DNA of 64,000 nucleotides, taken from the IMG/VR virus record IMGVR_UViG_3300001199_000007, positions 633 to 64,632 of that record; one strand, given 5' to 3'. The stretch comes from a virus. The position numbers and the translations under genes were made by a program. The stretch's first letter is position 1. Every line of letters begins with the position of its first letter. The notes beneath the pieces are model-generated. The model did no database searches and was not told the origin of the DNA. It saw only the letters and a list, made by a program, of their open reading frames with translations. Positions 1,068 to 17,524 of this stretch are shown in pieces.

Positions 1068-2520
1068 GTCTCGTAATCCTTATGCGAGCGTAGATCCTAT
1101 CGCGGAATTCATGCGCGGCTGGTCCGGCGGCGAGCAGATCCGGCGCGACCTCGAGTCCAGGGGCGATCGCGAACAGGCCCGGCAGGACCGGACCGAGGAC
1201 CGCGAATACACCCGCGGCAGGCGAGCCCGCGAGGTGACCCTGGACCAGCGTGCCGATACGACCTGGAACCAGCAGCAGGCCGAACATGAAGCCAACGCGC
1301 CGCTGCGTGAGGCCCAGCGCAGCGCCGGCATCGCGCTCGCCGAGGACACCGCTCCCAGGATCGAGTACGAGCGCGGCCGCCGTGACCACGAAGTTGCGGG
1401 CCGCATGACCCCAGAACAGCAGCGGCGCGCGAACGAGCTCTCGCTGGAGTCCGGAGAAGGACAGATCCGTCAGCAGGCGGCCACGCTGGAGAACACCAAG
1501 GCAACCACGGCCAACACGCGGGAGACGACGCGCGGATCCAGGCTGCGCAACGACATCACGGCCGAAGTCATCGACCTGGACCGGCAGATCGCGGCGCTCG
1601 ACAGCGGGCAGTTCAAGTCCCTGCAGAATCCGGAGTACCGGCAGACCGCGATGGACCTCTACGAGGACCTCATCCAGGGCAAGGGGCTTCGGGCGCCGGA
1701 CAAGCTCTACGGCTTCATGAACGACACCTTCGCGGACGAGCTCGGTGTCGGAGTCGGCGACAAGGTCGGCGGCACCGATGACGTCATCTCGCAGAAGCGG
1801 ATCTCGGCGCTGTACGAGGATCCCCGGAATCCCGGGAACGTGATGATCGAGCTCGACGTCCGCGCGAAGCGCAAGGACGGCAGCGAGTACGACTACAAGG
1901 CGCCGGTTACAAAGGGACGCAGGAGCGACGAAACCGACGAAATCCAGTCGATCCCCAAGGCCAAGCTGATGGAGCGGCTCCAGGGCGTCGTCGGAGCATC
2001 GCTCGACGTCGAGGCCGGCTTCGACGTCCAGGATCTCCGATCGAAGCTGGTGGCGCGCCGGGATGCCCTGGCGGGATCGGCAGGCCGCGGCGGCCGCGGC
2101 GGGGCCGGCAAGGGCGAGACGGCCTACGAGCGTAACGCGCGCTTCGTCGCGCAGCACAAGTTCGGCGGCGACGTCGAGAAAGCCCTGGACTGGATCAAGG
2201 GCAAGGACTCACGCACGCAGATTGTCGAACTGACAAAGATGCTCTCGGACTTCCAGAAGGACGAGTCGAAGTCGCGTCAGTTGACGCCGGCCCAACTCCT
2301 GCAGCGCGCCGTCGAGATGCAGGCCAGCCTGGCCGGCGGCGATCGCGGCCGCGGCAGCGATGCCGACACCGAACTTGACCCGTCGGCCGCCGGCGAGTCA
2401 GGTCCTGCGGCGCGGGCCGGCGACAGCCGTGCCCCGTCGGGGATGGCGGTCATCGGTCGCACGCCGGATGGCCGCACCGTCTACGAGGACGCCGAGGGCA
2501 ACCAGTTCACCGAGGAGTGA
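1066..2520 (+). CDS. Internal virion (ejection) protein, 484 aa
   Basis: SD GAGGA at 1054-1058. Helical charged N-half. Lies between the glycine-zipper gene and the giant protein; its stop is 1 nt before the giant-gene ATG. Confidence 0.6.
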   Translation: MSRNPYASVDPIAEFMRGWSGGEQIRRDLESRGDREQARQDRTEDREYTRGRRAREVTLDQRADTTWNQQQAEHEANAPLREAQRSAGIALAEDTAPRIEYERGRRDHEVAGRMTPEQQRRANELSLESGEGQIRQQAATLENTKATTANTRETTRGSRLRNDITAEVIDLDRQIAALDSGQFKSLQNPEYRQTAMDLYEDLIQGKGLRAPDKLYGFMNDTFADELGVGVGDKVGGTDDVISQKRISALYEDPRNPGNVMIELDVRAKRKDGSEYDYKAPVTKGRRSDETDEIQSIPKAKLMERLQGVVGASLDVEAGFDVQDLRSKLVARRDALAGSAGRGGRGGAGKGETAYERNARFVAQHKFGGDVEKALDWIKGKDSRTQIVELTKMLSDFQKDESKSRQLTPAQLLQRAVEMQASLAGGDRGRGSDADTELDPSAAGESGPAARAGDSRAPSGMAVIGRTPDGRTVYEDAEGNQFTEE

Positions 2521-2521
2521 C

Positions 2522-5500
2522 ATGGCGCTGAAGCCATACAGCGGGGAGGTCATCAAGGACACCGCGCAGCAGGGGTCGGCGGCGATGAAGCCGTACCGTG
2601 GACCTGTGCTCGAGGACGACGCCGATGCCGCGATCCTGGAAGGCGCAGCGGTCGCCGGCAAGATCGCCACCAACGTGGCCAGGCTCGGGCTCGGTGCCGT
2701 GGATCTCGCGGCCGCGGCAGCGCAGCGTGGCTACCACAACCTCACCCGCAGCGATCTGGACCGCCAGCTCGAGACGAAGCGGTTCGTACCGGCAACGTCG
2801 ATCGAACGACCCCAGGGTGAGCCTGTTGGCGCATTCGACGCCGAGACGGGGCAGCGGGCGGCGCGGCGCGACGCGGCTGAGGTGGCCCGGCCGGCGCAGG
2901 CGCCGCCGGCGCTGTTTTCGGTAACCAACAACACCCCGGCCGGCGAGAAACTCTCCGAGGTCGAGCAGGAACTGGATGAGGCCAAGACGCCGGGGACGCG
3001 CGCCGCGTTCCGCGAGGTCATGGAAGCCGGCCAGGGCGAACCGTCGGAGCTGCGCGCCGCGTACAAGACGGTAAGGGCGATCGCCAGGAATCCGCTGGTG
3101 GCCGGCGAGATGCTGGTGGAGAACGCTGGCCTCTTCGTGCCGACGATGGCGGCGCAGCGCATCGTGGCCTTGCCGACGTACCGCCGCACCTTCACCGCAG
3201 TACTCGACTCGGAGACCAAGAAGCTCGTCGCTTCGAACGTACCCAAGGAGGTCGCCGAGGTCGCGGCGCGCCAGACCGCCACCATCGCCGCGCGCAACGA
3301 GGCGATCCGCGCCGGCGCGCAGGCCGGTCTGTGGACCGAGGTCGGCATGGGCGCCGCCTTCGCCGGGGACCAGGCCTCGCAGACCATCATGGCGATGGAT
3401 CCCAAGGTGCTGGCGAAGTCCCCGGCCTACCAGGAGCTCGTCGAGCAGGGCGTCAGCGAAGAAGACGCCAGGATCCAGCTCGCGAACGAGGCCAGGCTGA
3501 TGGCGGGCCCGATTGCAGGTGCCGCGACCGGGCTGGCATCGAAACTTTCGGGGGCGATCAGCCGCGAGACCGAGATCGTTTCAGGCTTGGGCATGGCGAC
3601 GCGCGGTGTTCTCGGCGGGGTCCTGCGCTTCGGATCGACCGTGGGCAGGGAAACTGCTGAGGAGGCCGCCCAAGAGGCCGGCGAACAAGTCAGCAGCAAC
3701 ATCGGGGCGACGCGCGCGCTGGGCCACGACGTCACCGTGGCGGGCGCTGCCGAGGGTGCCGGCAGCGCCGCAGCGCTCGGAGGGACCCTTGGAGCGGCGG
3801 CGGGGTCGGCGTTCGCTGGCGCTGAAGTGATCCAGCGCGCCATGTCGGAACAAGTTCACACCGCGCAGCCGTCAAGCAGGGTGACGTCGACATCACCAGC
3901 GGGCAAGGATACCGGAGCGGTGTCGCGGCCCATTTCTGACGAAGGTGCCGCCACCATTGGAAGGGGGGCTCATCAGGAAGCCGACATTGGTTCGGCGCTG
4001 GCTCGAATCGAGAGGGACAAGAATGAAGATTCTGAAGAAGCTGCAGGACGCGACAGCAGCGCGCGTACTGTCACCGGAGGAGATGGGAGCAGTCCTGCGC
4101 TATCACCAGGATCAGTTGGAGCAGCAGCGCCAAGTGAGAACCTCTCCGCGGCTGCGGAAGGCACTGGAGCGATTCGACCTATTCCTGATGCCGGCGGCGA
4201 GCAAACTCCTGCACTAGAAGCAGCGGCGAACGAAGCCGCGACATCGCCGAGAAACGATCTGCCGGACCCCTCCGACGCTCAGAAGGAGGCAGGTAATTAC
4301 AGGAAGGGTCACGTCAAGATCCAGGGACTCGACATCAGCATCGAGAATCCCGCTGGGAGCCGGCGACGACCGGAGTGGGGACCTCTCAAGGACCACTACG
4401 GGTACATCCGGGGCACGAAGGGAAGAGACAAGGAGCACATCGACGTCTTCGTCGGTGCGGATACTGATTCGCCGGTCGCCTACGTGGTCGATCAAATCGA
4501 CCCGGAAACGGGGAATTTCGACGAGCACAAGATCATCCTGGGCCAGCGAAGCCTCAAGGATGCGCGCGAGGCCTACCAGCGCAACTACCAGGCTGACTGG
4601 AAGGGACTCGGCAATATCACCGCGGTCCCGGTTCGTGATCTCAGGGAATGGCTGCGGACCCCACAAACCAAGCCGTTCGCCAAGGCGACGCGGCTCAAGG
4701 TGCTCGACGACAAGCGGCTCGCGGATCCCTTGACGCGCCAGCAGCTGTCCGACATGGCCCCGGAAGCGGGCTGGTTCCAGGTCGGCGGCAAGGTGCAGCG
4801 CAGCGGGGACGGCGCCGGCGACTTCGAAGAGGCCATGGGGCGCGGCCACCAGCACGGCGACATCATCGGTCGGACGTCCTGGGTGCCCAATGCGCCGTGG
4901 TTCCCCGAAGTCCAGCAGCGGGCGCCGCTGCCGGGTAACACCAGAGGCACCGCGACGCTCGAAGCGGTCCAGAAGGCGCTGGACGGCCGCCAGATGACGG
5001 CCCCGGAGCGTGCGCACGTGAGGGGCATGCTCGAGCACCTCGACGAGCTCCGGCGCGACTACGAGGCCCACGGCGCGGCCGACGTCGATCCATTCGACCT
5101 CACCGGGGAGATGACCCGCCAGGGGCTCGGCGAGGCCGACGTCAACGATGCCGCTGTGGTCGCGCGCGCGGTAGAGTTGGACGAGGCCGCTGTCGAGCAG
5201 GCGGCGAAGCATTACGAGGCCGATGATCGCGGCTTCATGCAGGCAGTGCGGAGAATCGTCGATGGCCGAGGACAGCAAGAGCAGGGTCAGCAAGCTCGTG
5301 GCGACGGCCAAGGGCGTCAAGGCGCGCAAGGCGAAGAAGGCGGCGCCGGCGTCGCAGGCCAGCCTGGACAAGCTGCGCGAGAAGATGGGGGCCAAGTAGG
5401 TGGAGGCCCGCGTGCTGACGGAGGAACCGGACTTCGATCGGCTCCGGAGTCTGATGCGGGAAGTCGGGATCAAGGGGCCGTACCTGGTGCGGATCGGGTC

Positions 5501-8500
5501 GCAGGTCGAGATCAAGAGTCCGGTACCACGGGACTTCAAGATCGAGCGGTGGCCGCTGCCCCAGCGCTTGAGCTCGAAGCGCAGACCGAAGCGGACCTGA
5601 CCGCGCGCGCGGAGCGCACGCGCGCCGCCGAAGCTCAGGAGAAACAAGACGCTGCGAAGGCCGAGGAGCGCGCACGCGCCGACGTCGAGGCCTCCGACTT
5701 CCGTCTGACCGGCTCGGACCGGCCGGCGGATGTCGCGATGGCAGGCGGGCAGGCAGACCTCATCGGCGCCGCACAGCGGTCGCCAGATCGTGCCGCGATC
5801 GCCGAAGGCGTCAAGCCGATGGTGCAGCGCGAGCAGGCGGCGGCGAGTCGATTCATCGATGCCGCCTCCGAGCAATTCGGAATCACCGCCGAAGAGGCGC
5901 GTCGCGCCATGGATCATCTGGTGAAGACCAAGATGGTCTCCCTGGGCGCCGTCGATGGGCAGTTCAAGCTCAAGGACGGTCGCGTCTGGAACAAGGAGAT
6001 CCTTCGGCGCGCCGCTGATTTGGCACGCGGCCAGACCGACCCGCTGGCGCCCCCTTCATCCGGTTCAGTGAACGAGAAGCCGGCCGCGCCACGTGCCTCG
6101 GACCGTTTCAACGTTCGACCTGCGGCGCAAGAAGGGTGGATGGTGGTAGAGGACCCGCGCGGCGATGGCACCGGCCAGGCCCTCGCACGTTTCAGATTGC
6201 GCCCCGACGGTGGTGCCGGGAAGATCCAGCACTACTTCGAGTCTCCAAGCACGCGTGGACCCGTCGAGGAAGCTGTCGATCGATGGAACCGCGAGCGGAC
6301 GCCCAAGGAGCTCACCAAGGAGGCGCGTGCTGAACTCATCTCGGCTTTCGAGGCCGCTCCGGTAGGGTCCACCATTCGTTACGACGGCAAGGTCTACGAA
6401 CGCACCGGCCCGTCGATTGTGTGGCGACAGCAGGGCGAAGGATTGGGGACGCGAGGTCTGGTCCCATCGTTCTTCGTCGACCACGGCGTCCGGGATCTGC
6501 CGACGCCTCCGACTGCAGCAGCGCCGGCCGAAGCCGCAACAACGACGCCGATCGCTGCAACCGAGCAACCGGAAGCTGCAACCGCCGGCGCCGTGCTGCG
6601 CATCGAGCCCTTCGGCAGCCTCATCGCGGTGCGCGGCGACACCAAGCCGAACAAGGACCGCATCAAGGCGGTCGGTGGCGCCATCTGGAACCGCAAGGCC
6701 GAGGCCTGGACCTTCAAGAAGGAGAAGGAGCCGGCGCTGCGCGCGGCCCTCGCGGATCTCCTCGAGCCTGGCGGCAGCCGTCAATTCATCAACGCGGCCC
6801 CAGCCGGTGCTACGCTCGAATCGTCGGGAGGAAAGGGCGATGGAAAACCCGAGAACGCTGCTGAACCGGAAGGTCTACAAGGCCGAGACGGTGGCCGAGA
6901 TCGAGCGGATGGGCGAACTGGCGAGCCAGATCGCGGACCGCTGGGCGGGCGGCTGGCCGAAGCAGGCCCGGAAGCTCGAAAGCCAGAACCGGCTCCTGCC
7001 GGCGATCAAGGCGCAGATGGAACAGGAACAGCGCGCCCTGGACCTCGAGGCGCAGAACCCGTGGATGGGGGGGATCGAGACGCGCCAGATGGCCGGCGTG
7101 ACGGACGCCCCGCCGGAATAGTCGACGAGCCAGCTGGGGACCACGTCATTTCCGACCAAGACCAGGTCGGCGAGGGCGGCGAGAAGGCCAAGGCCCGCGC
7201 CAACCTTGCCGCGATCGAACTGGTGAAGCGCCTCGAATCCGAGGGGCGCAGCGCCACCCTGGAGGAGCGCCGCGCCCTGGCGCGCTACGTGGGCTGGGGC
7301 GGCCTCAAGGCGATCTTCGATCCCCAGAACAGCAAATGGAGCGATGAACATCTGCGGCTGACGTCGTTGCTCAGCGCCGAGGAATTCGCGGCGGCGCGCG
7401 CCTCGATGCTCGACGCCCATTACACCTCGCTGCCAGTGGTCGACGCGATGTGGGAAGCCGCAGAGGCCATGGGCTTCACCGGCGGCCGCGTCCTCGAACC
7501 GTCGATGGGCGTCGGCAACTTCTTCGGTCGGATGCCGGAAGCGGTGCGCGCGCGCAGCGTGCTCAACGGCGTCGAGCTCGACCGGATCACCGGCCTGATC
7601 GCGAAGCAGCTCTACCAGCGCGCCGACATCGCGGTGGCCACCGGCTTCCAGGACGTCACGTACCCCGAGAACAGTGCGGATCTCGTCATCGGCAACCCGC
7701 CGTTCGGATCCCAGGTGCTCTACGACGCCTCGATGCCGACGGCGACGCGCGGATTCAGCATCCACAACTTCTTCTTCGCCAAAGCAGTGCAGGTCACCAG
7801 GCCCGGCGGCCTCATCACCATGGTGGTGTCGCACAACCTGATGGACCAGGTCGATGCTTCGGCGCGGCAGTGGATCGCGGAGCGTGCGCACCTGCGCGGG
7901 GCGATCCGTTTGCCGTACACCGCGTTCCTGTCCAACGCCGGGACAGAGGTGGTCACAGACGTGCTGTTCCTGCAGAAGGCGATGCCTGGAGAGAAGCCGG
8001 ACACGTCCTGGGTGGAGACGAAGTCGATCACGCTCGAGGCGAAGGACGGCACGCCTCGCGAGTTCAATGTGTCCAGTTACTTCCTGGCAAACCCGCGCAT
8101 GGTGCTGGGACGCCAGGAAGCGACCGGCAAGATGTACGGCCGGCCCGACCAATACAACGTAGCCCCAACCGCAGGGTCCTCGCTCGACGAGCAGTTCCGC
8201 GCAGCCGCGATCGCCGGTCTACCCGAGAAGGTCTACGTCGCGGCGGAGAAGCCGGTCGACGTCGCGGGGATGCGGGACGCCATGGTGCCGGAGACGACCA
8301 AGGTCTACGGCTACTTCATGGACAAGGACGGCGAGACCGTGCTGCAGCGGGTCGCCGACACCTTCGACGGAAAGCCGCAGTCCAAGGTGGTCGAATTCAC
8401 CGACAAGACTTCGCCGCGCCGCGCCGCCGGCATGGTCAAGGTCAAGGAGGCGCTGCGCGAACTGATGCGTGCCGAGATGACCGAAGGCACCTCCAACGCC

Positions 8501-11500
8501 GCCCTGGGCACGCTACGGCAGTCTTTGAACACGATCTACGACGGGTTCGTGAAGCAGTACGGCTACATCAATGCCGCCACGAACCGGCGCGCATTCAGGG
8601 ATGATCCGGATCTGCCGCTGCTGGAATCGCTGGAGCCGAAGTACGACCCCGGGATCTCCAAGGACGTCGCGAAGAAGCGTGACGTTGAAGCCCGGCCGGC
8701 GAGCGCCGGTAAGGCCGACATCTTCAAGAAGCGGGTCCTGCAGCCCACCCTCGAAGTCACCTCGGTTTCTTCGGCCAAGGACGCCCTGATTGCGTCCCTG
8801 AACACGCGCGGCCGCGTCGACCCCGACTACATGGCAGGGATCTACGGCAAGGACTTCGACACGATTGCCGACGAGCTCGGCGATCTCGTGTTCCGTGATC
8901 CCGATGGCGGCACCTGGCAACCCGCGGACGTCTACCTGTCCGGCAACGTCAAGCACAAGCTCAAGGTGGCCAAGGCTGCGGCGGCGAAGTCGCAGGACCT
9001 GCAGCGCAACGTCACCGCGCTGGAAGCGGTTCAGCCGGTCGACGTGCCGGCCATCAAGATCGGTGTCCGTCTCGGCTCGTCCTGGCTGCCGCCATGGGCG
9101 ATTCGGGACTTCGCCAAGAGCATCCTGGGTAATGGCACCAGCGCATACCCGACTTACGTGCGCGCGGTGGGCCGCTGGTCCATCACCATCGAGGGCGCCG
9201 ACCAGGCCGCGAGCATCTCGCGTTGGGGCACAGCGAGAGTCCCCGCCGTCGACGTGATGTCGGCGGTGATGAACAACAAGCAGATCATCGTAAAGGACAA
9301 CGTCGGGACATCTCGCGAGCCCGTCTACGTCGTGAACGAGGCCGAGACCGAGATGGCGCGCGCCCGTGCCGACGACATGGCGGCCAAGTTCCGGGAGTGG
9401 ATCTGGCAGGACGAGAAGCGCCGCACCACGCTGGAGCGGATCTACAATGACGACTACAACACCGATCGCCGCAGGACCTACGACGGCAGCCACCTCACGC
9501 TGCCGGGCTCGTCGCCCGCGATCCAGTTGCGCCCTCACCAGAAGAGCGGGATCTGGCGTGGGGTCATCGAGCGCGCCGAGTTACTCGACCACGTCGTCGG
9601 CGCCGGCAAGACCTTCGAGATGGCCGGCATCGCGATGGAACTGCGCCGGCTCGGCATCGCGCGCAAACCGATGTTCACGGTGCCGAATCACCTGGTCCGG
9701 CAGTGGCGCGACGAGATCTACAAGCTCTACCCGAACGCCAATGTTCTCGCCGCGACCGAAGCCGACTTCGAGAAGGCGAACCGGAAACGCCTCTTCGGGC
9801 GCATCGCCACGGGTGACTGGGATGCCGTGATCGTCGGGCACTCCTCGTTCCAGCGCATCGGGACCCCGAGCGAAATGGAGAAGCAGATCCTCGCCGAGCA
9901 GCTGGAGGAAATCACGCAAGCCATTGAGGCCATAAAGCGTGACCGCGGTGATCGCCACGTCATCCGCGACATGGAGCGCATCAAGCAGAACCTCGCCGCC
10001 AGGATGAAGTTGCTGGCGGAATCCGCCGGCAAGAAGGACGACGTCGTCTCTTTCGATGAGATCGGCGTCGATGCCCTGTTCGTCGACGAAGCGCACCTCT
10101 TCAAGAACCTGTTCTACATGTCGCAGATGCGGGGCATCGCCGGCATGGGTTCCCCAGCGGGGTCCGGTCGCGCGTTCGATCTCTTCGTCAAGACGCAGTA
10201 CCTCAACAAGCGGTACCGCGAGCAGGCCCGCATCGTTTTCGCCACCGGCACGCCGGTCAGCAACTCGCTGGTCGAGATGTATACGATGCAGCGGTACCTC
10301 GCGTGGGACGAGCTCAAGCGCCGCGGCATCAGCACGCTCGATGCCTGGGCCGGCGTCTACGGCGACGTCCAGAACGTGTACGAAGTCCACCCCTCCGGTA
10401 CCGGCTACCGCCTCAAGAGCCGCTTCGCCAAGTTCGTGAACCTGCCGTCGCTGATGGACCTCTACAGGTCGGTCGCCGACGTCGTCACGATGCAGGACCT
10501 CAAGGACCAGGCCAAGGCGGCCGGCGGTCGGTTCCCGGTCCCGAACGTGAAGGGTGGCAAACCCAAGAACGTCGTCGCGGATCGATCTCCGCAACAGATC
10601 CAGTTCTTCGGGGTCCCCGAGTTCAAGCGGGACCGCGACAACGAGATCATGTTCAAGACGCCGTCCGACCTGCGTCCCGAGGAGCGCGTCGACGGCAAGT
10701 GGTGGCTGGTCGGCTCGCCCTACTATCCGGTCAAGGGCGTCGAGAAAGGTACCCAGTACGGCGGTCCTTATGAGAGCGAAGCCGAGGCCAAGGAGCAGGC
10801 CGCAATCCTGATCGAGCAGCCCATCGTGCAATACAACGAGGGCAGCATCCTCTGGAAGTTCGAGCACCTCCGCGAGCTCACCAAGACGACCAAGGGCAAG
10901 GTCAACGCCCTGTCGGTCACCAATGAGGCACGCAAAGCCGGGCTCGACTATCGCCTCATCGACCCCGCGGCACCTGATTTCCCAGGGTCCAAGATCAACC
11001 AGTCCGTCGTGGAGATGAAGCGCATCTACGACGAGTGGAGCGCGGACAAGGGCACTCAACTCGTGTTCTGCGACCTGAGCACGCCGCAGTCCGCGCGTGC
11101 ATCTGCGGCGACCAAGGAGAAGGTCGCCTACGTGCGCGACGGAGACGGCGAGATCAAGCGCGTCAAGGCGACGGTGGCGCCAGTCGATGGTTACCCGGTA
11201 GCGTTTCTGGTGGTGAAGGAAAAGGCTGGCCAGTACCGCGTGCACGACGGTCTCACCGGCGCCGACCTGCGCATCACCGGCACCACCCGTGACGAGGCCG
11301 TGGCCGCACTCAAGTCACGCGTCGGAACTGGCACGGGATGGATCGACGATCTACGCACCAAGTACGGCGAGATCGACGAGGACGCCATCTCCGAATTCAA
11401 GGCGGCGCGCGGCGACGAGAGCGCCGACGACGGTGAGGAGGACAACACGATCACGCTGGGCGACCTGCTTGCCCTTGGCGGGTCCGGGAAGTTCTCGGTG

Positions 11501-14500
11501 TACGACGACGTCCGCACCAAGTTGGTCAAGGCCGGGATCCCGGACAACGAGATCGCCTTCATCCACGACTACGACACCGCAGCCAAGAAGGCGGCGCTGT
11601 TCCGGGATGTCCGCTCCGGTGCAATCCGCATCCTACTGGGGTCGACGGAGAAGATGGGCGCCGGCACCAACGTTCAGGAGCGCGTCGTCGCCCTCCACCA
11701 TCTCGATGCGCCGTGGCGGCCGTCGGACCTCGAGCAGCGCGAAGGCCGCGTCATCCGCCAGGGCAACATGCTCTACGAGCGTGACCCCGACGGCTTCGCA
11801 GTGGAGATCTTCCGCTACGCGACGAAGCAGACCTACGACACCCGGATGTGGCAACTCATCGAGCACAAGGCCGCCGGCATCGAGCAACTGCGCAAGGCGG
11901 ACGCTGACCTGTTCGAGATCGACGACGTCGGCGGAGAGGAATCCAATGCGGCCGACATGAAGGCGGCGGCATCCGGAAATCCGCTGATCCTGGAAGAGAT
12001 CAAGTTGCGCAACGAGGTCAACAGCCTGGAAGCGCAGCAGTACGGTCACACGCAAAGCCTGATCGGCCTGCAGGACCGGATCCGGCGTGCGCGTGCTGCG
12101 CGGCCCGATGCCGAAAAACTGTTGGCGCGACTCAAGCCCTTCATCGAGACCAACAAGCTCTACCCGGCGGATGCCGACTTCTCGATGCGCCTGGCCAGCG
12201 GCAAGGTTATCGACGACAAGGCCAAGGCTGCGGAGCCTTTCATGTCCGCATTCAAGCGGGTCATGGAAGGGAAGGAGGAGGACGTCGTCATCGGTGAGTA
12301 CCGCGGTGTCGGTCTCACGATCGACTCTACCAAGAAGGGGGTCGTCGCTGTCACCGGCAACGTCGGCGATCGCGAACTGCACATCGCGTCCTACACCAAG
12401 GATGACTCGTTCTCGGTGGTTGGTCTCTTCACCCGCGTCGACAACCTCCTCAAGAGTGCCGAGTACCACGTGGCACAAGAGATGGCCGACGTCGAGCGGT
12501 ACGAGGCGGCGATCCCGGGGCTCGAGGAGGAAGCGAAGAAGCCCTTCGCGAAAACCGAGGAACTGCAGGCCAAGCGCGTCGCCCACCGCAACGTCACCAA
12601 TCAACTCGCCAAGGCCGGTGGTTCGATCGCCCTGACGCCTCCGATGCAGCGCGAGCTCAAGCGTGCCATCGCGAAGCGCCTCGGCAAGCCCGTCGAGGAG
12701 CCCCGCAAGGACGTCAGCGCCGCGGCACGGCCGAAGTCAGCGGTGCTGGCGCGCAGCGGACTCAGCGCGCGCGGCGCGCGTGCGATTGCGGAGGAGGCGT
12801 ACGGAGCCGAGGGCATCGGTGCCCTTGTGCGGCACGGGGTCCTCGAGTTCGTCGACGGCGCCGGAGCGCTGCCGGCCTCGCTGCAGGACTTCATCGAGCG
12901 CTTCGAGCTCGACAACCCGGGGCGGGAGGTGGCCGCGGTCACGGACCACGCGCTGGACCGCGTGTTCATTATCGCGGACCGTGCCAGGGCGTCGGACATC
13001 CCGGCCCTGGTCATGCACGAGATCGGAGAGCACTACGGTCTGCCCAAGATGCTGGGGCAGGCCAACTACAACCGGCTCCTCACCGAAGTCAGGGCCATGC
13101 ACGAGAGCGGCGCCAATCCGCTGCTCGACGATGCCTGGCGCTACGTGGAGACGCACTACGGATCGCTGCCGACGGGATCCGAGGAGTTCCTATCCGAAGT
13201 GCTGGCCAGGGTCTCCGAGCGCGCCGAGTTCCGCGCGACGCCGCTGTGGCGTCGCCTGCTGTCGGCGGTGCGCCAGTTCCTGTTCCGCATCGGCTTCACG
13301 CGGGCCTGGAAACTGAAGCCGGAGGATCTCGGGATCATGGTCGCCGCGGCACTGCGCCGGTCGATGCTGCCGGGGTCCGTGGTACCGAAGACCGCGCCGG
13401 ACCGCGCGCCAGCCTTGGCCGCCGCTGGCGCCGCGCCGGTCTACTACTCCCAACTCGAGCAAGTCGTCCGCGACAAGCTGCCCAACAAGGGCGGCGCCAA
13501 GATCTTCAGGTCGATGATCGAGGGGTGGCAGCGCAAGGGCGATTTCAAGAAGGAGGAGATCGAGTGGTCCGGGCTGCTGGAGTGGCTGGACCAGCAGGAC
13601 GGGAAGCTCGAGAAGCCGGCCGTGCTCGAATTCCTGCGCGCCAATGGCGTCCAGGTGGAGGAGGTGGTCAAGCACTCCGGGCCGGCCGTTCCGCAGGCCG
13701 ACATCGACGCGGCCCGGGCGTGGCTCGTCAAGAAGTTCGGCGACCCCAACGAGGACGCCGTCTTCCCGGACTGGCGCTGGGAAGATGCCGCGGCTGGCGA
13801 TCACGACGCCGTCGGAGATCTCGAAGGCCTCGGCATGCCGGACAAGCTGCTGGAGCCGTTCCGGACGGCCGCGCAGGGCGAGCACGGGCCGCAGTACTCG
13901 ACCTACCAACTCGGCGGCGGCGACAACTACCGCGAGATCCTGCTGACGCTTCCACCCAAGGACAGCATCACCCAGGTGCGGGTCAAGACTGCGCCTGGCT
14001 GGGGCGACACCGACGGCGGCGACATGGCGGTGGAGACGCGAGGGGACACTGGGGCTGACTTCCGCAGCGGTCACTGGCGCGAGCCCAATGTGCTCGTGCA
14101 TGTGCGAACCAACGAGCGCACAGACGCAGATGGCAAGCGCGTGCTGTTCATCGAAGAGGTCCAGTCCGACTGGCACCAGCAGGGACGGCGCAAGGGTTAC
14201 AACACGCCCCTGACCGAAGCCGACAAGGCAAGAATCGAGCGCATCGAGAATGACGCGGTGCGCGGACCTATGAGTGCTGCGGATGCCGAGTGGTACAACG
14301 CCAACGTCAACGACCGGCACCTTCTCACTCCGAATGCGCCGTTCAAGACCGTCTGGCCGATGCTGGCCATGCGCCGGATGATCCGGTGGGCCGCTGAGCA
14401 TGGGTTCGACCGCATCGCATGGACGACGGGCGAGCAGCAGGCAGAGCGGTACAACCTCAGCAAGCACATCGACCAAGTCATCCACGCCCGCGAAGATGAC

Positions 14501-17500
14501 GGCACGTACTCGATCGGCATCTATAAGAACGGCCGCGCGGTCCCAGGCTTCGACGAAGCCAAGTCATATAGCGAGGCCGACGTGGCATCAATGCTGGGCA
14601 AGGAACTCGCCCAGAAGATCGTCAACGGCGAGGGCAAGCCGCTTCCAGGTGGCCCTGAAAAGGAGCTCACTGGTCTCGATCTGAAGTTCGGCGGCGAGGG
14701 GATGCGCGCGTTCTACGATCGCGAGCTCGTCAACGAGGTCGGCAGGTACGTCAAGAAGTGGGGCACCAAGGTCGGCGTGACGCGCATCACCACGGATGCC
14801 AGCGCGGAGCGCTTCGCCGGGGCCATGCTCCGCGATGGGAAGCCGCGCCCGGGCGCCGGCCAGGTCGAGGTGCACTCCGTCGACATCACGCCGGAGATGC
14901 GCGCCGGAGCGGCGAGACCGCAGCCCATGTTCGCGGTGAAGCCGACCCAGCAGCAGGCCGCCCTCGGCGGTGGGTCCAAGCAGCAGCAGCTCGAGGACGA
15001 GGCCTGGCGCAAGGCCGGCATGCCCCGCGACAACAGGAGCCTGGCGGACCGCCTCGAGCACTGGGGGCAGGAACGGTGGGCCACGATCAAGGAGGAATTG
15101 ATCGACAACTTCCAGACCGGTGTCTTCGATCGGTTCAAGCCGATCAAGGATGCCGAGGGAGTCATCGACCCCGCGCGGTCCGGCTACCTGTCAGCGCGCC
15201 TCAGCACCGGCGGTAGCTCCGTGCTCTACGCGATGATGCTGTACGGGGCGCCGGAAATGCGCCGCGGGATCATCCAGAAGAAGGAGGGTACCCACGGCCT
15301 CCTCGAGATCCTGTCGCCGGTCGGCAACGATCTGAATCGCTGGGCTGCGTGGATGGTGGGGAAGCGCGCGGACATGCTGGCCGACCAGCACCGCGAGAAC
15401 AATCTGACGCTGGAGGAGATCGCCTACCTCAAGAGCCTCGCCGGGCCCGATGAGGAGAAGTTCGAGAGCGTCGCCCAGAACGTGCGGGCCTTCATGACCG
15501 ACGTACTCGGCATGATGAAGTCCGCTGGTCTGCTGGTGGACGAGCAGGTCGAGGCGTTCAGCAAGGATGCCTACTACCTTCCGTTCTATCGAATCGACGA
15601 GGACGGCGATGCGACGCGCCCCTTCACGAAGCGCGGGCTCAGCCACCAGTCCAGCGGCATCAAGCGCCTCAAGGGCGGCGCCCTGGCGCTGAACGACCCC
15701 ATCGAGAACCTGTTCGCGCACCTCTCCAAGGCGGTCGACGCCTCGATGAAGAACTACGCGCTGGCCAGGGTCATCTCGAACACCACGAAGCACATGACCA
15801 CGGCCAAGGAAGGCGACCGCGCCAAAGCCATCAGGGTGATGTGGGACGGAAAGGAACTCTGGTTCAACGTGGACGAGCCCGCGCTGCTGCGCGCGCTCAC
15901 CGCTGTGGGGGAGAAGCCGCGGGACGGCATCGCCCTCAATATCGGACGCACGATGCGCTGGCTGCTGACGACCGGCGTCACCCTGGATCCAGCGTTCATG
16001 CTGCGCAATTTCATGCGCGACTCGATGCACAGCTGGATGATCGACAAGAACTCCATGCGCTTCGGGATCGATTCACTGAAAGGGGCGGGGACCACGCTGG
16101 ACTCCATCGCGAAGACCGCACGCGGCCGGCCCGAGGACGCGGATCCGGCCCTGGTCTCGATGATGTTCGCCGGCGCCAGTTTTGTCGGTGGCCACGTCTA
16201 CGGCACCGACCCCAAGGCCAATGCCGCAGCGATGCGCAAGGCGCTCCGCCGCAAGGGGCTCAACGACCAGCAGATCAGCAACTACATGGGCACGCTGACG
16301 ACGTCGGCAGCGAAGTTCGCCTCGATGTATACGGCGATCGGGGAGGCCATCGAGAACGCGAACCGCATCGCGACGTTCAAGGCGGCGCAGGACGCCGGTC
16401 AGGGCCTGGCGCATTCGCTCTATGAAGGCAAGGACCTCATGGACTACAGCCTGCGCGGGCAATGGGCCATGGTCCAGGTGATGGCCGATGTGCTGCCGTT
16501 CTTCAACGCCCGACTGCAGGGCCTCTACAAGCTCGGGCGCGAGGCGCGTCGGGATCCCAAGGTGCTCGGGCTCGTCGCGACCCGCATCGCGGCGCGTGGT
16601 GCGCTGATGGCCTTGGCGGCCACCGCCCTGGTTGCCGCGTACAGCGGGCAAGACCGCTACGAAGAGCTCGAGGAGTGGGACAAGGACGCGAACTGGCACT
16701 TCTGGGTCGGTGACACCCATTACAGGGTCCCGAAGCCGTTCGAGCTCGGGATCCTGTTCGGGACGATCCCGGAGCGCATGTATCGCCTGGTGCGCGGCTA
16801 CGATCGGTTCGGAGAGTTCGTGCAGAGCGGGTGGCACAACATCGTGACCACCCTGGCGTTCGACATACGTCCACAAGCCCTTCGGCCGGCGATCGAGATC
16901 TTCAACAATTTCTCTTCTTTCAGACAGCGACCGATCGAGTCCATGGCAGATCTCAAGAAGTTGCCAGAGGATCGATACGGTTCGCACACGTCGCCGACGA
17001 TGGTCGAGATCGGACGGCTCACCGGGGCGTCTCCCAAGAAGCTGGAATACGCATGGGACGGCTACCTCGGGACCGTTGGGAGTTATTGCCTCGGGATCGC
17101 CGACTCCATGGTGCGAGTGGCACGAGGTGACGTCACACCGACAAGGCGCATCGAGGACTATCCGATCATCGGGTCGTTCATTCGTACCGGACCGGCCTGG
17201 AACACCGAGTACCAAACAGAGCTTTACGAGTTGGTGAAGAAGGCCGAACAGGTCAACAATTCGATAAGGGACAAGTCGAAAGTCGGCGATGACGCCGCAG
17301 CAGATCGCATGGTCGCCGACTACGAAGCGCTACTCGCGGTGCGCAAGATGCTGAATCGGTCCGCGGACAAGATCGGGAAGTGGCGCAAGCAGCGCGACGC
17401 CATCTACAACGATCCCGAGATGTCGGCCGAGGACAAGCGCCTTGAGATCGACCAGATCCAGATCAGGATCAACGAGGAAGCTATGGAAGCGGTGCGCGAC

Positions 17501-17524
17501 GCCGAAGCCGAAGGCGCTCAGTAG
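2522..17524 (+). CDS. Giant polyvalent DarB-like ejection/anti-restriction protein (5,000 aa)
   Basis: Start at ATG 2522 (MALKPYSGEV). PPase-like domain HYGYIRGTKGRDKEHIDVFVG (~4210-4690). N6-MTase VLEPSMGVGNF/IGNPPF (~7140-8250). SNF2 helicase LRPHQ, GAGKT, VDEAH, ATGTP, QREGRVIRQGN (~9480-11950). HEIGEHYGL metallopeptidase-like motif (~13010). EEVQSDWHQ domain (~13420-14920). LPD38-like WHFW..RVPKPFELG (~16690-16760). Confidence 0.9.
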   Translation: MALKPYSGEVIKDTAQQGSAAMKPYRGPVLEDDADAAILEGAAVAGKIATNVARLGLGAVDLAAAAAQRGYHNLTRSDLDRQLETKRFVPATSIERPQGEPVGAFDAETGQRAARRDAAEVARPAQAPPALFSVTNNTPAGEKLSEVEQELDEAKTPGTRAAFREVMEAGQGEPSELRAAYKTVRAIARNPLVAGEMLVENAGLFVPTMAAQRIVALPTYRRTFTAVLDSETKKLVASNVPKEVAEVAARQTATIAARNEAIRAGAQAGLWTEVGMGAAFAGDQASQTIMAMDPKVLAKSPAYQELVEQGVSEEDARIQLANEARLMAGPIAGAATGLASKLSGAISRETEIVSGLGMATRGVLGGVLRFGSTVGRETAEEAAQEAGEQVSSNIGATRALGHDVTVAGAAEGAGSAAALGGTLGAAAGSAFAGAEVIQRAMSEQVHTAQPSSRVTSTSPAGKDTGAVSRPISDEGAATIGRGAHQEADIGSALARIERDKNEDSEEAAGRDSSARTVTGGDGSSPALSPGSVGAAAPSENLSAAAEGTGAIRPIPDAGGEQTPALEAAANEAATSPRNDLPDPSDAQKEAGNYRKGHVKIQGLDISIENPAGSRRRPEWGPLKDHYGYIRGTKGRDKEHIDVFVGADTDSPVAYVVDQIDPETGNFDEHKIILGQRSLKDAREAYQRNYQADWKGLGNITAVPVRDLREWLRTPQTKPFAKATRLKVLDDKRLADPLTRQQLSDMAPEAGWFQVGGKVQRSGDGAGDFEEAMGRGHQHGDIIGRTSWVPNAPWFPEVQQRAPLPGNTRGTATLEAVQKALDGRQMTAPERAHVRGMLEHLDELRRDYEAHGAADVDPFDLTGEMTRQGLGEADVNDAAVVARAVELDEAAVEQAAKHYEADDRGFMQAVRRIVDGRGQQEQGQQARGDGQGRQGAQGEEGGAGVAGQPGQAAREDGGQVGGGPRADGGTGLRSAPESDAGSRDQGAVPGADRVAGRDQESGTTGLQDRAVAAAPALELEAQTEADLTARAERTRAAEAQEKQDAAKAEERARADVEASDFRLTGSDRPADVAMAGGQADLIGAAQRSPDRAAIAEGVKPMVQREQAAASRFIDAASEQFGITAEEARRAMDHLVKTKMVSLGAVDGQFKLKDGRVWNKEILRRAADLARGQTDPLAPPSSGSVNEKPAAPRASDRFNVRPAAQEGWMVVEDPRGDGTGQALARFRLRPDGGAGKIQHYFESPSTRGPVEEAVDRWNRERTPKELTKEARAELISAFEAAPVGSTIRYDGKVYERTGPSIVWRQQGEGLGTRGLVPSFFVDHGVRDLPTPPTAAAPAEAATTTPIAATEQPEAATAGAVLRIEPFGSLIAVRGDTKPNKDRIKAVGGAIWNRKAEAWTFKKEKEPALRAALADLLEPGGSRQFINAAPAGATLESSGGKGDGKPENAAEPEGLQGRDGGRDRADGRTGEPDRGPLGGRLAEAGPEARKPEPAPAGDQGADGTGTARPGPRGAEPVDGGDRDAPDGRRDGRPAGIVDEPAGDHVISDQDQVGEGGEKAKARANLAAIELVKRLESEGRSATLEERRALARYVGWGGLKAIFDPQNSKWSDEHLRLTSLLSAEEFAAARASMLDAHYTSLPVVDAMWEAAEAMGFTGGRVLEPSMGVGNFFGRMPEAVRARSVLNGVELDRITGLIAKQLYQRADIAVATGFQDVTYPENSADLVIGNPPFGSQVLYDASMPTATRGFSIHNFFFAKAVQVTRPGGLITMVVSHNLMDQVDASARQWIAERAHLRGAIRLPYTAFLSNAGTEVVTDVLFLQKAMPGEKPDTSWVETKSITLEAKDGTPREFNVSSYFLANPRMVLGRQEATGKMYGRPDQYNVAPTAGSSLDEQFRAAAIAGLPEKVYVAAEKPVDVAGMRDAMVPETTKVYGYFMDKDGETVLQRVADTFDGKPQSKVVEFTDKTSPRRAAGMVKVKEALRELMRAEMTEGTSNAALGTLRQSLNTIYDGFVKQYGYINAATNRRAFRDDPDLPLLESLEPKYDPGISKDVAKKRDVEARPASAGKADIFKKRVLQPTLEVTSVSSAKDALIASLNTRGRVDPDYMAGIYGKDFDTIADELGDLVFRDPDGGTWQPADVYLSGNVKHKLKVAKAAAAKSQDLQRNVTALEAVQPVDVPAIKIGVRLGSSWLPPWAIRDFAKSILGNGTSAYPTYVRAVGRWSITIEGADQAASISRWGTARVPAVDVMSAVMNNKQIIVKDNVGTSREPVYVVNEAETEMARARADDMAAKFREWIWQDEKRRTTLERIYNDDYNTDRRRTYDGSHLTLPGSSPAIQLRPHQKSGIWRGVIERAELLDHVVGAGKTFEMAGIAMELRRLGIARKPMFTVPNHLVRQWRDEIYKLYPNANVLAATEADFEKANRKRLFGRIATGDWDAVIVGHSSFQRIGTPSEMEKQILAEQLEEITQAIEAIKRDRGDRHVIRDMERIKQNLAARMKLLAESAGKKDDVVSFDEIGVDALFVDEAHLFKNLFYMSQMRGIAGMGSPAGSGRAFDLFVKTQYLNKRYREQARIVFATGTPVSNSLVEMYTMQRYLAWDELKRRGISTLDAWAGVYGDVQNVYEVHPSGTGYRLKSRFAKFVNLPSLMDLYRSVADVVTMQDLKDQAKAAGGRFPVPNVKGGKPKNVVADRSPQQIQFFGVPEFKRDRDNEIMFKTPSDLRPEERVDGKWWLVGSPYYPVKGVEKGTQYGGPYESEAEAKEQAAILIEQPIVQYNEGSILWKFEHLRELTKTTKGKVNALSVTNEARKAGLDYRLIDPAAPDFPGSKINQSVVEMKRIYDEWSADKGTQLVFCDLSTPQSARASAATKEKVAYVRDGDGEIKRVKATVAPVDGYPVAFLVVKEKAGQYRVHDGLTGADLRITGTTRDEAVAALKSRVGTGTGWIDDLRTKYGEIDEDAISEFKAARGDESADDGEEDNTITLGDLLALGGSGKFSVYDDVRTKLVKAGIPDNEIAFIHDYDTAAKKAALFRDVRSGAIRILLGSTEKMGAGTNVQERVVALHHLDAPWRPSDLEQREGRVIRQGNMLYERDPDGFAVEIFRYATKQTYDTRMWQLIEHKAAGIEQLRKADADLFEIDDVGGEESNAADMKAAASGNPLILEEIKLRNEVNSLEAQQYGHTQSLIGLQDRIRRARAARPDAEKLLARLKPFIETNKLYPADADFSMRLASGKVIDDKAKAAEPFMSAFKRVMEGKEEDVVIGEYRGVGLTIDSTKKGVVAVTGNVGDRELHIASYTKDDSFSVVGLFTRVDNLLKSAEYHVAQEMADVERYEAAIPGLEEEAKKPFAKTEELQAKRVAHRNVTNQLAKAGGSIALTPPMQRELKRAIAKRLGKPVEEPRKDVSAAARPKSAVLARSGLSARGARAIAEEAYGAEGIGALVRHGVLEFVDGAGALPASLQDFIERFELDNPGREVAAVTDHALDRVFIIADRARASDIPALVMHEIGEHYGLPKMLGQANYNRLLTEVRAMHESGANPLLDDAWRYVETHYGSLPTGSEEFLSEVLARVSERAEFRATPLWRRLLSAVRQFLFRIGFTRAWKLKPEDLGIMVAAALRRSMLPGSVVPKTAPDRAPALAAAGAAPVYYSQLEQVVRDKLPNKGGAKIFRSMIEGWQRKGDFKKEEIEWSGLLEWLDQQDGKLEKPAVLEFLRANGVQVEEVVKHSGPAVPQADIDAARAWLVKKFGDPNEDAVFPDWRWEDAAAGDHDAVGDLEGLGMPDKLLEPFRTAAQGEHGPQYSTYQLGGGDNYREILLTLPPKDSITQVRVKTAPGWGDTDGGDMAVETRGDTGADFRSGHWREPNVLVHVRTNERTDADGKRVLFIEEVQSDWHQQGRRKGYNTPLTEADKARIERIENDAVRGPMSAADAEWYNANVNDRHLLTPNAPFKTVWPMLAMRRMIRWAAEHGFDRIAWTTGEQQAERYNLSKHIDQVIHAREDDGTYSIGIYKNGRAVPGFDEAKSYSEADVASMLGKELAQKIVNGEGKPLPGGPEKELTGLDLKFGGEGMRAFYDRELVNEVGRYVKKWGTKVGVTRITTDASAERFAGAMLRDGKPRPGAGQVEVHSVDITPEMRAGAARPQPMFAVKPTQQQAALGGGSKQQQLEDEAWRKAGMPRDNRSLADRLEHWGQERWATIKEELIDNFQTGVFDRFKPIKDAEGVIDPARSGYLSARLSTGGSSVLYAMMLYGAPEMRRGIIQKKEGTHGLLEILSPVGNDLNRWAAWMVGKRADMLADQHRENNLTLEEIAYLKSLAGPDEEKFESVAQNVRAFMTDVLGMMKSAGLLVDEQVEAFSKDAYYLPFYRIDEDGDATRPFTKRGLSHQSSGIKRLKGGALALNDPIENLFAHLSKAVDASMKNYALARVISNTTKHMTTAKEGDRAKAIRVMWDGKELWFNVDEPALLRALTAVGEKPRDGIALNIGRTMRWLLTTGVTLDPAFMLRNFMRDSMHSWMIDKNSMRFGIDSLKGAGTTLDSIAKTARGRPEDADPALVSMMFAGASFVGGHVYGTDPKANAAAMRKALRRKGLNDQQISNYMGTLTTSAAKFASMYTAIGEAIENANRIATFKAAQDAGQGLAHSLYEGKDLMDYSLRGQWAMVQVMADVLPFFNARLQGLYKLGREARRDPKVLGLVATRIAARGALMALAATALVAAYSGQDRYEELEEWDKDANWHFWVGDTHYRVPKPFELGILFGTIPERMYRLVRGYDRFGEFVQSGWHNIVTTLAFDIRPQALRPAIEIFNNFSSFRQRPIESMADLKKLPEDRYGSHTSPTMVEIGRLTGASPKKLEYAWDGYLGTVGSYCLGIADSMVRVARGDVTPTRRIEDYPIIGSFIRTGPAWNTEYQTELYELVKKAEQVNNSIRDKSKVGDDAAADRMVADYEALLAVRKMLNRSADKIGKWRKQRDAIYNDPEMSAEDKRLEIDQIQIRINEEAMEAVRDAEAEGAQ
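4023..4217 (+). CDS. Nested +1-frame ORF inside the giant gene (64 aa, MKILKKLQDA...)
   Basis: SD GAGGG 6 nt upstream. 48/64 codons end in G/C, while the giant frame switches to A/T-ending codons and low-complexity sequence here. Confidence 0.45.
   Translation: MKILKKLQDATAARVLSPEEMGAVLRYHQDQLEQQRQVRTSPRLRKALERFDLFLMPAASKLLH
5262..5399 (+). CDS. Nested +1-frame Lys/Ala-rich 45-aa ORF (MAEDSKSRVSKLVATAKGVKARKAKKAAPASQASLDKLREKMGAK)
   Basis: SD GGAG 8 nt upstream. All 45 sense codons end in G/C; about half of the giant-frame codons over the same stretch end in A/T. Not in the supplied ORF track (too short). Confidence 0.55.
   Translation: MAEDSKSRVSKLVATAKGVKARKAKKAAPASQASLDKLREKMGAK
5400..5600 (+). 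CDS. Nested +1-frame ORF, 66 aa (MEARVLTEEPDFDRLRSLMREVGIKGPYLVRIG...)
   Basis: GTG start directly follows the TAG of the 5262-5399 ORF. Globular-looking composition; 58/66 codons end in G/C. Confidence 0.5.
   Translation: MEARVLTEEPDFDRLRSLMREVGIKGPYLVRIGSQVEIKSPVPRDFKIERWPLPQRLSSKRRPKRT
6840..7121 (+). CDS. Nested +1-frame ORF, 93 aa, immediately before the DarB MTase module
   Basis: Strong SD GGAGG 8 nt upstream; 86/93 codons end in G/C. Protein-like sequence QIADRWAGGWPKQARKL..LLPAIKAQMEQEQ..ETRQMAG..APP. The giant frame here is a G/R/D/P low-complexity linker. Confidence 0.7.
   Translation: MENPRTLLNRKVYKAETVAEIERMGELASQIADRWAGGWPKQARKLESQNRLLPAIKAQMEQEQRALDLEAQNPWMGGIETRQMAGVTDAPPE

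Follow-up and report, generated by a model that had tools for sequence, protein, structure and literature searches.

The giant gene and its nested open reading frames

The window analysed here is a 64-kb piece (64,000 nucleotides, nt) of a 67-kb viral contig of groundwater metagenome origin (IMG/VR record IMGVR_UViG_3300001199_000007). On the + strand it carries a giant open reading frame (ORF) of 5054 codons (2360–17524, defined from the ORF list and Pfam), which we call the host gene. Wholly inside this gene, on the same strand and in its +1 frame, lie two small complete ORFs, s1 (5262–5399) and s2 (5400–5600), each with a start and a stop of its own.

The host gene matches the Pfam domains InPase, Eco57I/N6_Mtase, ResIII, Helicase_C and LPD38. 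Since InPase, N6 methylase, ResIII/Helicase_C and LPD38 co-occur, its product is taken as a polyvalent, DarB-like virion protein as Iyer et al. 2017 (PMC5512222) understand the term: a phage or plasmid polypeptide holding many unrelated conflict-related domains, including an LPD domain, found here in a virus record. An LPD38-bearing protein of 2811 amino acids (aa) from phage phi24B is a virion component, as judged by proteomics (bioRxiv 10.64898/2026.04.10.717836). No close relative of the phage was found when DNA and protein of the region were compared with the phage collection and viral contigs, the best match to the region being 46% identical, and a region search with the giant protein returned only itself and P0010, a second polyvalent protein described below.

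Upstream of s1, a host unit which we call domain A finishes with ...AAKHYEADDRGFMQAVRRIVDG; its end motif (FENDDAAFM..I[IV]DG) is common to 46 relatives. In the window this end, FMQAVRRIVDG, was located by motif comparison at 5234–5266, and its codons CGG AGA ... GAT GGC provide the start signals of s1. It is followed by a linker (5261–5557, host residues about 968–1066) seen from translation and codon counts to be a G/Q/R/E/A/D filler, and then by the 'B-module' APALELEAQTEADL...DFRLTGSDRPADVAMAGGQADL (5558–5764), which comparison with relatives identifies as a conserved inter-domain unit of polyvalent proteins. The B-module begins at APALELEAQTEADL (5558) and carries the invariant motif ...F.LTGSD..AD...GQ. 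Neither domain A nor the B-module matched a Pfam or PHROG family. The B-module is a very widespread unit between the domains of polyvalent proteins (window 5558–5764; around position 1500–1700 in loci L010–L089) with the layout xLxLExQTEEDL, a charged helix, then KAxADxExxDFxLTGSDRPADVAMAGGQxDLF, and could serve as a docking or processing site.

s1 encodes 45 aa with an isoelectric point (pI) of 10.6, from ATG5262 to the stop TAG5397–5399, and finishes with the conserved C-terminal motif ...EKMGAK. A Shine-Dalgarno (SD)-like GGAG at 5250–5253, 8 nt before the ATG, uses the rare host-frame Arg codon AGA. s2 (pI 10.9, stop TGA5598–5600) has two candidate starts, GTG5400, which directly abuts the TAG of s1 and would give 66 aa, and GTG5412, which would give 62 aa. 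As judged from the sequence, the second is the more likely, since a GGAGG at 5402–5406, 5 nt before it, is a likely ribosome-binding site. The last 14 or so codons of s2 are the +1 reading of the conserved start of the B-module, and its TGA arises from host Leu-Thr codons (CTG ACC), where a stop recurs in many loci. A preliminary description of this DNA had already reported the 5262–5399 ORF with its GGAG and the GTG following its TAG, and both observations were reproduced. A consensus scan of 4800–6000 revealed no promoter-like site or terminator.

Codon signature of the nested frame

In the +1 frame, G/C at codon positions 1, 2 and 3 amounts to 0.58, 0.49 and 1.00 for s1, and to 43, 30 and 58 of 66 codons for s2. 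All 45 codons of s1 thus end in G or C, as previously claimed, and the G/C content at the third position (GC3) of s2 is 88%. In the giant frame over 5261–5599, 105 of 113 codons begin with G or C and only 53 of 113 end with them, which bears out the earlier statement that about half of the host codons here end in A or T and that they encode a filler (G/Q/R, or more fully G/Q/R/E/A/D). Position-wise GC in 90-nt windows displays a clean switch to the +1 phase from about 5240 to about 5570, and then back. Position 1 above position 2, together with position 3 near 100% GC, is the profile of a frame that codes on the + strand. The antisense ORFs 4214–5917 and 5235–5675 were considered as coding and rejected, with scores below those of the +1 frame in the scan described next and a position-wise GC wrong for coding.

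For a codon log-likelihood (LLR) scan, 10 kb of well-behaved giant-gene sequence served as the training set. The +1 frame beats the host frame at only three places in 15 kb, at about 3995–4205, 5225–5585 and 6785–7145, and none of the 12 other long genes in the window has such a segment. The second of these covers s1 and s2, so that the frame-resolved scan proposed in the preliminary description places the +1 frame above the giant frame at the expected location. Two further linkers of the giant gene, at 6020–6140 and 6440–6620, are P/A/T/S-rich, have weak coding scores in every frame, no +1 signal and a GC3 of 0.6–0.7. Not every linker therefore holds a nested ORF.

We also compared the observed host GC3 with that expected from the host protein itself. 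With the protein fixed and synonymous codons redrawn from the gene's own usage (5000 draws), the expected host GC3 was 0.81 (standard deviation 0.06) over s1 and 0.83 (standard deviation 0.05) over s2. The observed values were 0.49 and 0.45, and none of the 5000 draws was as low. The 'silent' sites of the host frame, far below the resampled expectation, must thus be constrained by something, and both this resampling and the specificity of the LLR scan indicate that the coding signature of s1 and s2 is not explained by host-frame composition.

Conservation of s1 and of its start site

P0010 is a polyvalent protein of 3168 aa encoded on the Logan contig L006, and shares the B-module with the window protein at 74% identity. 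In its gene, the +1 frame wins exactly before the B-module. A nested +1 ORF is present there (L006 9900–10067), with a GTG start 6 nt after AAGGAGG, and was identified as a homologue of s1 by pairwise comparison and phmmer. The L006 ORF finishes with ...KRAPASKQSIERMKEKLGAK-stop and s1 with ...KAAPASQASLDKLREKMGAK-stop: 11 of 20 residues are identical and 18 of 20 similar (pairwise E 8e-7; phmmer E 0.0019 among 6705 ORF pieces). In an all-against-all comparison of nested peptides, these two link only to each other. The stop is in the same place, and two serines are kept across switches between TCG and AGC codons. Host-frame identity over the same codons is about 5/18 (about 28%). The preliminary description had reasoned that a linker conserved in relatives lacking the +1 ORFs would speak against them; for s1 the opposite was observed in this one homologue. 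In L006 the start follows a different upstream domain, and the stop lies only 20 nt before the B-module. A search of metagenome and viral contigs with the s1 alignment returned no further relatives.

The start site of s1 is also present elsewhere. The window, L009 and L062 share the layout domain A, linker, B-module; in all three, the nested ATG is formed by the same Asp-Gly codons (GAT GG.) and is preceded 7–8 nt upstream by (A)GGAG, written in host codons for RR, RS or QE. Nested GC3 in these loci is 1.00, 0.96 and 0.86, respectively, versus a host GC3 of 0.49, 0.41 and 0.52; the same ranges, 0.86–1.00 versus 0.41–0.52, hold for the domain-A start-site loci overall. A fresh scan of viral contigs for domain A yielded 10 distinct loci, and 8 of these (L090, L091, L092, which is on the same contig as L062, L095, L096, L097, L098 and L100) have an SD-led +1 ATG or GTG at the same spot. 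In total the start site is kept in 10 loci (the window, L009, L062/L092, L090, L091, L095–L098 and L100), with (A)GGAG 6–8 nt before the start. In the eight loci of the fresh scan, the SD nucleotides are conserved while the underlying host residues vary (QR, RR, QE, RE, GE, KE), and in GC-rich genomes the SD is spelled with the rare Arg codons AGG and AGA.

Part of the nested peptides at domain-A loci form a sub-family with a 'SRVQAL' core, which scores 58–93 in the +1 frame versus 20–39 in the host frame. Because s1 is not detectably similar to this sub-family, we regard the domain-A start-site loci as its positional equivalents and not as homologues.

s0 and s3, two further nested ORFs in the same gene

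The two other places highlighted by the LLR scan each hold a nested +1 ORF on the + strand. s0 (4023–4217) encodes 64 aa behind an SD and ATG, in the linker before the InPase domain. s3 (6840–7121) encodes 93 aa behind a GGGAGG SD and ATG, in the linker before the methylase module. A nested homologue of s0 is found at L002 7787–7987, inside a separate InPase gene, with an identity of 34% in the nested frame versus 11% in the host frame. For s3, six homologues cover the full length, with 45–73% identity. In the prophage L002 it is again nested in +1, within an ORF of 3397 codons, and identity is 71% in the nested versus 58% in the host frame; in L003 and L004 the homologue is free-standing, at the end of an integrase island. 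As judged by these comparisons and those above, selection on the nested frame is shown for s0 and s3 and is partly indicated for s1.

In L003 (8940–10282), the free-standing s3 homologue directly follows an integrase-like gene at the edge of the island, where AlpA, HTH_17 and a methylase/ResIII set are also present. This setting hints at a role of the s3 family in DNA transactions.

In the L002 prophage (GCA_053528435.1, L002 9553–19746), the annotation calls the nested gene, of 94 aa, and starts the methylase-helicase at 10567, inside its conserved N-terminal region. The frame is in fact open from 9553/9598 onward (3397 codons) and runs through the nested gene, so that the annotation splits one ORF; inspection by eye revealed no alternative start codon between the stop of the nested gene and the conserved region.

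Within the same giant gene, s3 resembles s1 and s2 in being a small complete ORF with its own SD, in +1 and in the same orientation, that spans a low-complexity linker. For s3, relatives preserve both the nested and the host frame. s1 and s2 differ in lying between domain A and the B-module instead of before the methylase, in their size (45 and 62–66 versus 93 aa), in being strongly basic and in forming a tandem pair.

The linker preceding the B-module in other phages

We collected 80 viral loci carrying the B-module. In 27 GC-rich loci, mean host GC3 falls from about 0.77 to 0.49–0.56 in the 180 nt upstream of the module; in lower-GC loci the dip is smaller. The +1 translations before the B-module are mostly ATG-led and protein-like, 40–60 codons long, and belong to several families. 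An SD-like motif lies ahead of 26 of 54 nested ATGs, compared with 7% of control ATGs (p 6e-16) and 12% of linker windows (p 8e-11).

Each frame was then aligned locally and independently. The scores in +1 and host frame, respectively, were 160 and 86 for L031–L068, 122 and 61 for L031–L061, and 123 and 67 for L011–L067, that is, the +1 frame is favoured about two-fold in divergent pairs, some of the genomes being only 45–48% GC. Inside the B-module the host frame wins in 3057 of 3060 pairs. These comparisons use strong pairs alone; a threshold count of best frames across the linker zone was set aside, as low-complexity scores dominated it. In 16 pairs taken together, 280, 275 and 357 differences fall on nested positions 1, 2 and 3, respectively, so that host position 3 varies least; the underlying alignments are of the nested frame.

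In L031, L061 and L068 (45–48% GC), one nested +1 family (...QEKIEATKVLMKL...FDQLGLDH...) shows about twice the conservation of the host frame. Since at such low GC neither frame is open for free, these three loci are the clearest example of selected dual coding among those collected. A helix-cap-like motif L.K[LV][STP]P[ED].[RK]K, common to several nested peptides that are otherwise unrelated, was noted in +1 about 150–300 nt before LTGS in L012, L027, L057, L059, L063, L069, L074, L080, L086 and L087, and phmmer links five of the nested motif peptides (L063, L069, L076, L080 and L087). A shared 'L.KL[ST]PE.RK' motif had been seen by eye among nested peptides; the regular expression matched 2 loci only, and no claim is made for it.

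s2 and the predicted products

No usable relative of s2 was found among 5.8 billion proteins (near its length), in viral, metagenome or genome contigs, in plasmids (tblastn), in the ESM Atlas or in the PDB, nor did s2 find a partner in the all-against-all comparison of nested peptides. The s1 homologue of L006 stops only 20 nt before the B-module, so that s2 is additional sequence, about 155 nt long, inserted in the phage of the window. In favour of s2 are its codon signature, an SD and start, a sequence that is non-repetitive and protein-like, and the neighbouring nested ORFs.

Neither s1 nor s2 matched an entry of Pfam, PHROG, NCBIfam, PADLOC or PDB. For the TnpV family in particular (PF14198), s2 from GTG5412, s0 and s3 gave no match at E up to 1; s1 and s2 from GTG5400 matched nothing in Pfam, PF14198 included, at E up to 0.01. 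The AlphaFold2 (AF2) model of s1 is a single long helix over residues 2–42, with a mean per-residue confidence (pLDDT) of 76.

The preliminary description had called s1 histone-like and had suggested, alternatively, a toxin-antitoxin-like pair. With regard to the first, no family match was obtained and the model is one long helix, not the globular fold of HU or H1; the resemblance is confined to a Lys/Ala-rich composition, as in H1 tails. The second is disfavoured because both products are basic (pI 10.6 and 10.9), unlike the usual acidic antitoxin and basic toxin; no toxin or antitoxin domain was detected, nor a promoter-like site in 4800–6000. Of that description, the two overprinted ORFs with their own start signals thus stand, on codon evidence and for s1 also on comparative evidence, while its functional guesses found no support. 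A small nucleic-acid-binding or giant-protein-binding accessory role for s1 and s2, co-expressed late with the injected protein, is the leading suggestion for their function, held at low confidence.

A linker probably written in two frames

From the letters of the DNA, we consider it likely that these 339 bases are dual-coding, specifying a linker of the giant protein in one frame and two small basic proteins in the +1 frame. The host frame would contribute a sequence-indifferent, disordered linker between two modules of a polyvalent protein packaged in the virion, and the +1 frame would encode s1 and s2. s1 would initiate at the ATG drawn from the Asp-Gly codons (GAT GGC) that close domain A, using an SD drawn from the Arg-Arg codons (CGG AGA) of its end. 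s2 would initiate by coupling at the TAG-GTG junction or, with greater likelihood, at GTG5412 behind GGAGG. Both would presumably be made in small amounts, by translation of the late mRNA of the giant gene itself.

The two frames would tolerate each other for reasons of composition. Nested codon position 3 coincides with host position 1, which makes +1 the permissive phase, and would drift to G/C in a GC-rich genome. The host, reading only G/A/R/Q/E/D/P/V/L/H codons, cannot meet a stop and receives a harmless hydrophilic filler; the near absence of T at position 2 of the host codons, typical of a hydrophilic linker, in turn keeps stops out of the nested frame. Given this mutual permissiveness, a linker of indifferent sequence can carry a gene.

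Several observations weigh against this reading. Openness is worthless as evidence, since the +1 frame stays open in 98% (s1) and 86% (s2) of the redrawn host sequences; host codon position 1 carries T only 3 times in 113 codons, so that the openness of the host frame is nearly automatic too. The preliminary description had cautioned that +1 third positions are partly G/C-biased in any GC-rich gene. This caveat is justified for openness and fails for the collapse of host GC3, which is a real signal. The only sequence homologue of s1 is on a single contig (L006), with similarity over just 20 residues; a hidden Markov model of the better-conserved 'SRVQAL' nested family does not match s1, and when s1 is aligned locally with its positional equivalents, the +1 frame scores no higher than the other frames. 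The excess of differences at nested position 3 is modest and comes from alignments that flatter the nested frame. s2, considered as a living gene, is an orphan for which the coding signature is the sole argument, and could be a young or a decaying gene; its AF2 model is of low confidence (pLDDT 57). Of the sequencing runs holding the stretch, one DNA run, probably the source sample, was retrieved and no RNA run is listed.

Among the alternatives, the one that survives best, though we judge it unlikely, concerns mainly s2. The region could be a fossil of fused genes, in which loss of stops joined the modules and the small genes in between were read through as linker, retaining their old periodicity for a time after translation and selection had ceased. 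Relatives do vary in the order of their modules and in which of these are fused (the InPase gene is separate in the L002 prophage), s3 is free-standing elsewhere, s2 is an orphan absent from the equivalent L006 junction, and read-through is automatic once nested GC3 is high. Over the distance at which host proteins are only 40–50% identical, however, decay of the periodicity and of intact starts would be expected, whereas the stop, the C-terminal motif and the start site of s1 are kept. For s0 and s3, conservation with the nested homologues is far higher in the nested frame than in the host frame, nested ATGs show a strong enrichment in SD motifs, and s2 itself retains an intact start, an SD and a GC3 of 88%.

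A second possibility, to which we give little credit, is that there is no second gene, the linker using rare A/T-ending codons for instance to slow translation between domains, with the +1 ORFs and their starts as by-products of a G/A/R/Q/E-rich linker. A hydrophilic linker indeed opens the +1 frame by itself (P 0.86–0.98), the amino acids used suffice to explain G/C at host position 1, the host GC3 dip before the B-module is family-wide, and at large distance all three frames score similarly, with low complexity. The linkers at about 6020–6140 and 6440–6620, nevertheless, keep their GC3 at 0.6–0.7 without a +1 signal. Pausing does not predict an SD and ATG at a fixed site, serines kept via TCG/AGC switches, a similarity higher in +1 than in the host frame, a host position 3 that is the least variable, or free-standing s3 homologues.

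A programmed +1 frameshift near 5250–5262, ending at TAG5399 and giving a truncated InPase plus domain A product with a basic helical tail, is very improbable: the SD-like GGAG and the rare codons AGA, CGA and GGA do lie just upstream of the frame change and the s1 frame closes at a conserved stop, but 5180–5640 contains no X XXY YYZ slippery heptamer, in-frame stop or known shift site, in 10 loci an ATG or GTG is kept exactly 6–8 nt downstream of the SD, as expected of an initiation site, and in L006 the start follows a different upstream domain. We see almost no room for an assembly artefact, in which two compensating indels would make a shifted piece of the giant protein resemble separate ORFs: the record is a metagenome assembly with one G5 run at 5387–5391, yet an independent Logan assembly of the source run (65.8-kb contig; another assembler, same reads) is identical over 3800–7400 with 0 differences and 0 gaps at a k-mer depth of about 36, which argues that the frame change is not an indel artefact, and moreover the +1 frame has an internal stop with a fresh start behind it and independent contigs of other samples share this layout.

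Relation to known nested genes and implications

Same-strand nested genes are known as such. In phage lambda, the small spanin gene Rz1 lies wholly inside the larger Rz, in +1 and on the same strand, with a single late mRNA serving both; its product is a lipoprotein that binds the Rz protein and functions together with it. The layout is alike here, with the difference that the host segment is an unconstrained linker and not a functional coiled coil, and that one gene holds four nested ORFs. In Bacillus subtilis, comS is a 46-codon ORF located out of frame within srfAB, a giant multi-module gene, and translated from its transcript. The sequence around it encodes a domain of a cellular non-ribosomal peptide synthetase, and comS acts in the regulation of competence. 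Like comS, s1 and s2 are very short and out of frame in a giant gene; they differ in occupying the linker of a phage gene instead of a coding domain. Overprinting in small viruses (phiX174 B in A, E in D) is likewise a same-strand overlap in a shifted frame, in which one partner is compositionally biased and disordered over the overlap (PMC8227390, PMC7017920). That type is explained by pressure on genome size and by de novo birth, whereas the genome here is of 67 kb. As at least s3 has free-standing relatives, capture of an existing gene by a permissive linker is just as plausible here as de novo birth.

Iyer et al. 2017 make no mention of overlaps, linkers or frameshifts in polyvalent proteins (PMC5512222), and our literature search found no report of genes nested in polyvalent genes. 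What is new is the tandem pair of ORFs in one linker, the conserved SD and start written on the end of domain A, and evidence for the linker before the B-module as a recurrent site of such ORFs in phages.

More generally, and with less assurance than for the locus itself, the linkers of polyvalent genes in phages and plasmids may be a general and selected niche for small +1 genes. Under this proposal, dozens of phages would carry SD-led ORFs of 40–60 codons between domain A and the conserved B-module, belonging to several basic helical families missed by annotation, with products acting alongside the injected giant protein. If so, the nested products might bind the acidic helix of the giant protein or the co-injected DNA, and one giant gene would amount to a compact operon that uses two reading frames. 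Unannotated small genes seem to be concealed in the linkers of giant genes. Giant polyvalent genes are called as one ORF or wrongly cut, as in L002, where the methylase start was moved and room made for the nested ORF. Should small genes be concealed in linkers on a regular basis, the proteomes of phages and of conjugative elements would be under-counted precisely where counter-defence functions cluster. A rule for lasting long same-strand overlaps would then be a +1 frame, with nested position 3 on host position 1, over a sequence-indifferent hydrophilic linker; such nested genes could therefore be searched for in any genome, starting from its sequence. Synonymous changes in the host frame suffice to abolish the nested starts.

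Other features of the giant genes

The P0010 gene of L006 displays a second +1-frame win at 7589–7828, in a P/A/G-rich linker. The corresponding ORF (7548–7853) may start at an internal ATG after a purine-rich stretch, and the signal may reflect either another nested gene or an effect of composition.

At the 5' end of the window gene, the true start is probably the ATG at about 2522 (MALKPY...). The stored protein P0002 (5000 aa) begins at ORF residue 55, in agreement with this start. The first 54 or so codons of the giant ORF (2360–2521) appear non-coding in their own frame, being R/P/S/T-rich with the best LLR in another frame, and overlap the end of the ORF at 1066–2520.

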